Shown here piece by piece: positions 9,907 through 10,914 of a stretch of 16,367 bases of DNA. Positions within the stretch are counted from its first letter, which is position 1. Every line of letters begins with the position of its first letter. Below the pieces are notes generated by a model. That model saw nothing but the letters and a program-made list of their open reading frames with translations, was not told the origin of the DNA and made no database searches. The DNA is from Candidatus Thorarchaeota archaeon (GTDB taxonomy: Archaea > Asgardarchaeota > Thorarchaeia > Thorarchaeales > Thorarchaeaceae): the NCBI GenBank assembly GCA_048882325.1, contig JBHLRS010000047.1:4001-20367 (forward strand), read 5' to 3'. The translations under genes were made by a program, and so were the position numbers.

Positions 9907-10371
9907 TTAACCTGCGAGTTCTTCTGCAAACCGCACTCCAAAATCTCGAGCCTTCGCGGGTTCCGATGCACCGAGTGGTCCCTTCAGTCCCTCTACAAGC
10001 GCAGCGAGTCCAGGCTTGAACAGTCTGGCCTCTGGTTCTTTGTCTGCAACCGCATCTTCAACAAACTTCACTGCACGACCTGCATGTCCTGGAGCCTGAT
10101 AGGTTTCAAAAGCGCCAACTAACTTGCCCTTCAAGCCTTGTTTGAGGACATTCTTCACCGCACCTCTGAGTCCGCCAGCAGGTCTAAACATGTGGATTGG
10201 TCCGCCGAGAAGAACACCGTCAAAAGACCCAATATCATGTGAGTTGACCTCATTGATGCCTATGACTGTGCATTCTGCCTTCCCGGTCTCAGTGATTGCA
10301 GCAGCGATCTCTCTGGCCAGTTTCTCTGTGTTTCCATAGGTTGAGTCGAAAATGACTAGGACTTTCTTCAT
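9907..10371 (-). CDS. Flavodoxin-like protein
   Basis: FMN phosphate loop FDSTYGNTEKLA, plus FDGVLLGGP, GAFET and GPL motifs. Confidence 0.9.
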   Translation of the reverse strand: MKKVLVIFDSTYGNTEKLAREIAAAITETGKAECTVIGINEVNSHDIGSFDGVLLGGPIHMFRPAGGLRGAVKNVLKQGLKGKLVGAFETYQAPGHAGRAVKFVEDAVADKEPEARLFKPGLAALVEGLKGPLGASEPAKARDFGVRFAEELAG

Positions 10372-10440
10372 GTTCTATGCACCACATGCTCTGATTGAAC
10401 TTTTTCGGAATTGCATCAAGACCTAGTAAACCTTGGCAAA

Positions 10441-10472
10441 GGAGAATAAAGTGGGGAGGTGGGGACCTCCCC
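10441..10472 (-). terminator. GC-rich hairpin followed by a pyrimidine-rich tract; putative 3' end of the small-ORF transcript
   Basis: On the minus strand, GGGGAGGT-CCCC-ACCTCCCC forms an 8-bp stem (10453-10472) followed by ACTTTATTCTCC. Confidence 0.5.
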
Positions 10473-10511
10473 GGGGAATGAACGAAAATCTAGGATTTCA
10501 GAAACTAGAAG

Positions 10512-10568
10512 CTATTTCTTTGGTTTCTGAGCGGTCTTCTGTTCTTTCTTCTGCTTGTTCTTACCCAT
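10512..10568 (-). CDS. Small Lys-rich peptide MGKNKQKKEQKTAQKPKK (18 aa)
   Basis: Below the ORF-track cutoff. ATG...TAG with a perfect GAGGTGA SD 5 nt upstream (10574-10580), a TATA candidate upstream and a hairpin downstream. Confidence 0.6.
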   Translation of the reverse strand: MGKNKQKKEQKTAQKPKK

Positions 10569-10661
10569 TAATGTCACCTCACTTGACATTCGGGGTCAAT
10601 TTGCCTTGGACACCGTTGCATCCGAAAGGGACTGAGACGAGAAGTCTGTACAAAAAACCCG
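10569..10661 (-). ncRNA. Putative structured 5' leader (cis-regulatory RNA) of the small ORF
   Basis: Nested stems: CGGGUU/GACCCCG closing helix, AGAC/GUCU, CCUU-GGAUGC-AACG-GUGUCC-AAGG (G-U pairs favour the minus strand), and AAUGUCA/UGACAUU enclosing the SD. Confidence 0.45.
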
Positions 10662-10684
10662 TAGCCTTATTTGCGTTTTAATTT

Positions 10685-10896: not shown

Positions 10897-10914
10897 ATTT
10901 TACTTGAGTAAAAT
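10897..10914. promoter_or_regulatory. Palindromic operator, probably for the adjacent TetR
   Basis: ATTTTACT-TG-AGTAAAAT has perfect 8-bp arms. It lies just upstream of the TetR gene and downstream of TATA-like TTTATTTA (10875-10882). Confidence 0.7.

Follow-up and report, generated by a model that had tools for sequence, protein, structure and literature searches.

Bacterial mRNAs are known to carry leaders that stabilise the transcript at its 5' terminus or display its Shine-Dalgarno (SD) sequence, such as the hairpin in the 5' UTR of ompA and the STAB-SD element of the Bacillus cry3A mRNA. The leader described here is encoded on the minus strand of a 16,367-nucleotide stretch of DNA (in the following referred to as the window), which belongs to contig C47 of a 3.6-Mb genome (93% complete) of a Candidatus Thorarchaeota archaeon. 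Judged by analogy, its mode of action would appear closest to that of a 5'-terminal stabiliser that also presents the SD. Similar to the bacterial examples, a helix is predicted at the very 5' end of the mRNA while the real SD remains accessible, an SD-like GAGGU is found near the 5' end in most genera carrying the unit, and the mRNA would be short and monocistronic with a 3' hairpin. In contrast to them it originates from an Asgard archaeon, shares no sequence relationship with either leader, and an anti-SD-like CCUC, not the 16S rRNA, is the predicted pairing partner of its SD-like bases at the 5' end.

The leader also shares features with the fourU and ROSE thermometers and with translational riboswitches, namely a start-adjacent hairpin covering the spacer and the UGA of the SD, and an upstream domain that is closed by a helix and could form mutually exclusive pairings. 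Unlike in these regulators, the SD core is located in a loop and is predicted to be open throughout 4-75 °C, the inner domain lacks conservation from one genus to another, and neither an Rfam match nor a ligand-related gene was found. Within the Archaea, small RNAs encoding small proteins are known from Methanosarcina mazei. They resemble the unit as short archaeal transcripts with a conserved micro-ORF and structured untranslated parts, but they belong to a different phylum and show neither sequence nor structural similarity to it. Literature searches revealed no description of either the leader element or the peptide.

In Asgard archaea, few RNA structures acting in cis have been described, and annotations lack genes of less than about 30 codons. 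The main value of the locus lies in a defined and testable RNA-plus-microprotein unit in this group. The unit is reproducible and comprises a promoter, a folded leader, a displayed SD, a micro-ORF and a 3' hairpin, for which a working covariance model is now available. It may serve as a test case for translation initiation on leadered mRNAs and for the stabilisation of very short transcripts in relatives of the eukaryotes.

The leader-bearing unit and its micro-ORF

The site is a folded 5' leader of about 95 bases which belongs to a real, unannotated gene of 18 codons encoding a lysine-rich peptide. Read on the minus strand, to which all coordinates of the unit refer, it is arranged as promoter, leader, SD, micro-ORF and 3' GC hairpin, and spans about 330 nt. 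The promoter consists of a BRE-like AGATATG (10699-10693) directly followed by the TATA box TTTATATC (10692-10685). A TATA box of the GTTTATATCC type is kept across genera, and the 14-mer of the promoter occurs only once in its own genome. Based on the spacing from the TATA box, transcription is predicted to start at 10662-10660. The SD GAGGUGA (10580-10574) precedes a micro-ORF of 18 codons plus stop (10568-10512, stop codon at 10514-10512) with the product MGKNKQKKEQKTAQKPKK. Further downstream follows a 3' hairpin, GGGGAGGU-CCCC-ACCUCCCC (10472-10453), with a U-rich tail. No tRNAs were detected in a scan of the window. The leader had no match in Rfam 15 at the gathering thresholds, and up to an E-value of 10 merely noise was obtained.

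A BLAST search in 60 relatives yielded seven homologs from the same genus with 75-83% identity over about 250 nt, in which promoter, leader, SD hairpin, ORF and 3' hairpin all align. The covariance model R1, which was built from these same-genus homologs, detected the unit in 16 further genomes from six genera of the family, after one match had been set aside because it represented the lysine-rich C-terminus of a 360-aa ORF. A pattern search for an SD followed by an ORF ending in KPKK-stop regained nearly all R1 units and added a seventh genus with a different leader, while the control gave zero matches. A pattern scan of metagenomes revealed six more leader-bearing units, among them a tandem pair. 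In total, 22 leader-bearing units were found in addition to that of the window (23 units), distributed over seven genera of one Thorarchaeia family and metagenomes. The unit is patchily distributed, occurring in 8 of the 28 species of the genus and being absent from the same-genus genomes G001 and G024, which are nearly complete (97% and 99%). No second copy of the leader was present in any genome examined, and the unit is single-copy per genome except for tandem pairs. Such tandem paralogous copies of the micro-gene, about 390-500 nt apart, were observed at L060 (G032:C3), L061 (G099:C13) and L172.

Genus g6 possesses a different leader, whose UGCCA/UGGCA stem holds the SD in a loop and involves the start codon in pairing. 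A pairing of its SD with the post-stop sequence CACCUCUG was considered and was not chosen by RNAfold. Lysine-rich ORFs of 15-25 codons that are preceded by an SD and end in KPKK also occur in other Asgard families (L083, L084, L089), and similar ORFs are located on unassigned metagenome contigs (for example L127, L135, L168 and L152); examples of the encoded peptides are MSEEKKKESKIRKPQIKKPKK, MGKKGRRQNKKKPKPKK and MPEKKKPEEKKKPKK. The KPKK ending of all these ORFs was imposed by the search pattern, and their homology to the unit of the window is not established. At L083 and L084 the ORF is followed by a GGAGGUG/CACCUCC hairpin.

The coding nature of the micro-ORF is shown by the pattern of variation, since in 11 close homologs of 19 codons the variable sites at codon positions 1, 2 and 3 number 7, 4 and 17, respectively. 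Every one of the 23 units contains an uninterrupted, in-frame ORF of 17 to 21 codons, always preceded by the invariant SD GAGGUGA, which is complementary to the sequence GGAUCACCUCC that terminates the 16S rRNA of same-genus genomes at the 3' end. The spacer between the SD and the start codon (AUG or GUG) measures 4-5 nt in 22 of these units. The peptide has no match in Pfam or among the PDB sequences, and a search of 400-500 nt around each of the 23 units yielded no acidic partner micro-ORF. Due to the lack of a hydrophobic stretch in the peptide we discarded the assignment of the transcript as a type I toxin mRNA, and an inspection of 10440-10510 revealed no TATA-like box on the opposite strand that could belong to an antisense partner. 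Two other reading frames were rejected as well: an 82-aa ORF on the plus strand (10433-10681), which spans the whole unit, is broken in the homologs and conserved in none of them and is therefore regarded as spurious, and the frame of an upstream ORF beginning at the AUG of the leader GGAUGC is changed between homologs by a 1-nt indel, as read from the alignment.

In 22 of the 23 units, the ORF is succeeded by the 3' GC hairpin, whose 5' arm is GGAGG-like and whose 3' arm is CCUCC-like. Despite this common arm pattern, the sequences of the hairpin (10472-10453 in the window, equivalents at L027-L042) differ between genera. Pairing between its anti-SD-like 3' arm and the SD would be conceivable.

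Predicted folding of the leader and exposure of the SD

The sequence-only reading from which this analysis started had described a multi-stem leader with a closing helix formed by 10591-10597 and 10656-10661, a long and a small inner hairpin, and an SD hidden in a hairpin before the start codon. The closing helix, hereafter P1, was recovered by RNAfold in nearly the same position and pairs GGGUU (10660-10656) with GACCC (10597-10593). P1 is present in the form GGGU/ACCC in most sequences of the genus, as GAGU/ACUC in three and as GGGU/AUCC in one of them; CGCAG/CUGUG is found in a metagenomic relative, and AGGU/ACCU, GAGG/CCUC or GAGG/CUUC, and GAGGUCC/GGGCCUC in other genera. At three of the four P1 pairs the pair types amount to 17 GC and 4 AU, 12 GC and 10 AU, and 16 UA and 5 GC, respectively. 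Over the whole structure, 13 pairs are changed on both sides in the alignment of the 23 sequences, compared to 4.4 in shuffled alignments (0 of 500 reaching the observed count) and 1-3 in slid registers, a count that leans towards the structure as the alignment was fitted to it by the model.

For this reason an alignment-free duplex test was applied, the windows of which were fixed by the SD and by the 5' position of P1, the latter being taken from the model alignment. It gave p = 0.006-0.1 for P1 in most lineages and was not significant in g3 (p about 0.5-0.6), while the two values for g9 were p = 0.07 and 0.67. P1 has a length of only 4-7 bp, and when the first 12 codons of the ORF are included its probability in RNAfold drops to about 0, the U-rich leader then pairing with the purine-rich ORF. 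A long-range pairing of the U-rich leader with codons 6-9 is possible for 94% of the positions in the genus; its covariation equals that of shuffles, and the duplex energy is only marginally better than in composition-matched shuffles (p mostly 0.03-0.6).

In the homologs checked, the 5' strand of P1 begins 23-26 nt after the last base of the TATA box. As archaeal transcription usually starts at about this distance from the TATA box, the 5'-terminal bases of the mRNA are probably part of P1. Together with the 3' hairpin, both ends of an mRNA of about 220 nt therefore appear to be structured.

P1 encloses an inner domain (10654-10604) which is predicted to form a long imperfect hairpin with the helices UGU/GCA, GAC/GUC, UCGUC/AACGG and GUCC/GGAU and a variable apical loop. 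Hairpins do exist on the minus strand at the positions given by the sequence-only reading, although not all of them are conserved. The small hairpin AGAC/GUCU (10647-10635) is restricted to the window, its middle pair being formed in only 1 of 12 close homologs. The long hairpin with the core GGAUGC/GUGUCC and its two G-U pairs can form in the window and is pairable to 89% in the homologs; it competes with a fold composed of GAC/GUC, UCGCC/GGCGG and GUCC/GGAU, for which 95% of the cells are pairable in the 12 close sequences, and shows essentially no covariation. Covariation among homologs had been proposed as a check; P1 does covary, and neither of the two inner folds covaries within the genus. 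A K-turn or C/D-box at the CUGA/GAUG internal loop was dismissed upon inspection, as the middle base of UGA varies and tandem G-A pairs are missing.

From genus to genus the inner domain changes in both sequence and length, being neither conserved nor alignable. Within the genus its identity exceeds 0.9 except for the apical loop, a near-invariance that goes beyond the needs of a generic stabiliser and hints at a specific partner. The leader as a whole is more conserved within the genus than third codon positions, with the exception of the apical loop and a linker, which suggests either a specific partner or a constraint at the DNA level, a TGTACA palindrome being a candidate for the latter.

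The folding energy offers little discrimination. For the leader (10665-10560) the minimum free energy of -24.8 kcal/mol compares to -25.4 ± 3.7 kcal/mol in dinucleotide shuffles (z = +0.16), so that the window folds no better than shuffled sequence, an outcome which the sequence-only reading had named as one that would refute its proposal. After trimming the ends to the predicted transcript the z-score of the window is -0.63, and across the 23 leaders it averages -0.92 (range +0.57 to -2.56). The only region that stands out is the local surrounding of the SD hairpin (10598-10563) with -11.0 kcal/mol and z = -2.2. Since the energies are close to those of shuffles, thermodynamics alone supports the fold weakly.

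The SD hairpin (10590-10570) consists of a stem of 7 bp (AAUGUCA/UGACAUU) and a loop of 7 nt (AGUGAGG), has an energy of -4.6 kcal/mol and is separated by a single A from the AUG (10568-10566). The previous assignment of the SD to the loop and the 3' arm proved accurate, since the GAGG core is positioned in the loop and UGA and the spacer are paired. In the core of the window's genus the stem comprises 7 bp. It has 5 bp in two other lineages, in one of which a G-C pair is replaced by U-A and in the other an A-U pair by G-C; a unit of yet another genus retains 4 bp, the remaining ones about 3 bp, and in one close relative the stem is disrupted. UCA and UGA are nearly invariant, UGA being part of the SD. 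Based on the sequence comparison, an SD-proximal hairpin recurs in several lineages with a few compensatory changes.

This hairpin does not appear to sequester the SD. According to the partition function of the predicted transcripts, the probability of GAGG being unpaired is 0.75-1.0 in 11 of 12 close homologs and 0.98 in the window, compared to 0.2-0.45 if the leader is shuffled upstream of the SD. The exposure of the native SD exceeds that of at least 93% of the shuffles in most of the close homologs and in 14 of the 23 units, and that of at least 85% in 17 of them. Six units stay outside this pattern (m118, g31, both of g9 and one of the two of g2), and for four units belonging to g31, g9 and g2 (one of its two) the predicted SD exposure does not surpass that obtained with shuffled leaders. 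UGA and the spacer are paired (probability of being unpaired 0.01-0.05), and the AUG is open to about one half. Since GAGG is unpaired beyond the level of shuffles, the fold is predicted to display the SD rather than to hide it. A function as thermometer is likewise contradicted by a constant predicted accessibility between 4 and 75 °C, the in silico probability of being unpaired ranging from 0.97 to 1.00 for GAGG, from 0.01 to 0.17 for UGA and from 0.45 to 0.66 for AUG.

Possible function of the leader and competing explanations

The leader is perhaps best explained as the 5' UTR of an autonomous monocistronic micro-gene, which stabilises the mRNA and presents the SD mostly constitutively in cis, an interpretation in which we place about even confidence. 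The strong BRE/TATA promoter would probably start the RNA at about 10662-10660. Together with the GACCC immediately preceding the ribosome-binding site, its first bases GGGUU would form P1, which encloses the long imperfect hairpin. By means of P1 and the inner hairpin, the pyrimidine-rich leader would be folded on itself, leaving the purine-rich GAGG unpaired in the loop of the small hairpin, with the SD 5 nt before the AUG. The base-paired 5' end and the 3' hairpin would presumably stabilise the very short mRNA, and the displayed SD of 7 nt would provide efficient initiation on the ORF of 18 codons for a polycationic peptide, for which high expression and a cellular role might be expected. 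The small stem over UGA and the spacer, together with a competition of ACCC for GGGU in the window's genus, leaves room for modulation. Of the candidate novel translational control element suggested before, a conserved structured leader directly before a translated start with a covarying P1 and without an Rfam family is retained, while the switch and the sequestration are not supported.

Such a switch, in which a signal shifts the leader from P1 with an open start to a fold occluding the start or the SD, might be realised by a riboswitch, by an operator binding a protein or peptide, or by a thermometer; in one version the basic peptide itself would exert the feedback, in the manner known from the leaders of ribosomal-protein mRNAs. 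In the window's genus the ACCC of P1 can indeed pair either with the 5' GGGU or with the GGGU at AUG-GGU, the local alternative coinciding with the region of z = -2.2 mentioned above. This alternative start-site fold reaches pair probabilities of 0.45-0.58 in a longer transcript, and RNAfold prefers it if 12 codons are included. In other genera the 3' strand of P1, CCUC, is also complementary to the SD, and the near-invariance of the inner domain within the genus, apart from its apical loop, would agree with such a switch. However, the alternative pairing is confined to one genus because codon 2 is GCN, AGU or AAA elsewhere, and the SD core is open at every modelled temperature. In particular, a riboswitch aptamer is not supported, since no curated model matches, the inner core varies between genera in a manner untypical of aptamers, and the leader always precedes the lysine-rich micro-ORF, the product of which has no metabolic link to any ligand. 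Altogether, a regulated switch therefore seems unlikely.

It is still less probable that the leader represents a true sensor, that is, a new Asgard-specific riboswitch-like element or an operator for the polycationic peptide which toggles between P1 and a start-occluding fold. If this applied, the unit would exemplify how a tiny protein that binds nucleic acids or the ribosome, and that standard gene callers omit because of its size, is controlled by feedback.

A dual-function small RNA, in which the leader of the transcript of about 220 nt base-pairs with other mRNAs in trans and the micro-ORF is a second product, would be in agreement with a short, stand-alone unit possessing its own promoter and 3' hairpin and with a leader that is more conserved than synonymous sites. 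As pairing is predicted for most of the conserved segments, and as the codon pattern, together with a strong SD and a fixed spacer, shows that translation is the selected feature, we regard this function as improbable.

The conservation might also partly act at the DNA level, with the palindrome and a block upstream of the TATA box serving as transcription-factor sites and the RNA fold being incidental. The palindrome TGTACA (10652-10647), which has the form CTGTACAG in most homologs, occupies about +10 to +17 in the predicted RNA. The genera g1, g3 and g9 retain (C/U)UGUACAG, the predicted pairing partners of which differ between genera, so that it may represent a DNA operator; the sequence upstream of the promoter is conserved across genera as well. 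Given that the coordinated changes on both strands of P1 and the compensatory changes in the SD hairpin would be left unexplained, we assign a small probability to this explanation. The block in question covers about 60 nt upstream of the TATA box (10760-10700), includes TAAAGG..CTAT and CCTTAAATTT, and moves with the unit; its conserved parts may be transcription-factor sites.

Genes adjacent to the unit

In the window, a flavodoxin-domain ORF begins at 10371 on the same strand, 140 nt downstream of the micro-ORF. A TetR gene is divergently oriented at 10904 and a second flavodoxin gene is located beyond it, so that the two flanking flavodoxin genes noted from the sequence alone are both present. 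The downstream flavodoxin gene is found in five of the seven same-genus loci and in no other genus. The neighbours in other genera include genes encoding UPF0047, FtsZ, HTH regulators, an FlpD/Fe-S protein and DUF362, and are mostly convergent. Since the neighbours differ and the next gene is usually convergent, the unit is autonomous and the leader belongs to the micro-ORF. A leader-peptide attenuator was rejected on similar grounds, the linkage to one downstream gene being not conserved and the 3' hairpin following the ORF.

That the leader instead regulates the downstream flavodoxin gene from its 5' side, the micro-ORF serving as leader peptide or the structure sensing FMN, is suggested by the position of this gene in the window and in five same-genus loci. 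This explanation is already contradicted by the non-conserved synteny and is hardly credible, because the GC hairpin and the U-rich tail stand between the two, an unrelated and usually convergent gene comes next in two same-genus genomes and in nearly all loci of other genera examined, and Rfam gave no FMN riboswitch match. With the autonomy of the unit, the tempting interpretation as an FMN riboswitch next to flavodoxins loses its basis and was abandoned as unsupported.

At two same-genus loci, L029 (G013) and L032 (G003), the unit adjoins the 3' end of a convergent TetR-orf156-flavodoxin operon, an arrangement which is a local rearrangement around the unit.
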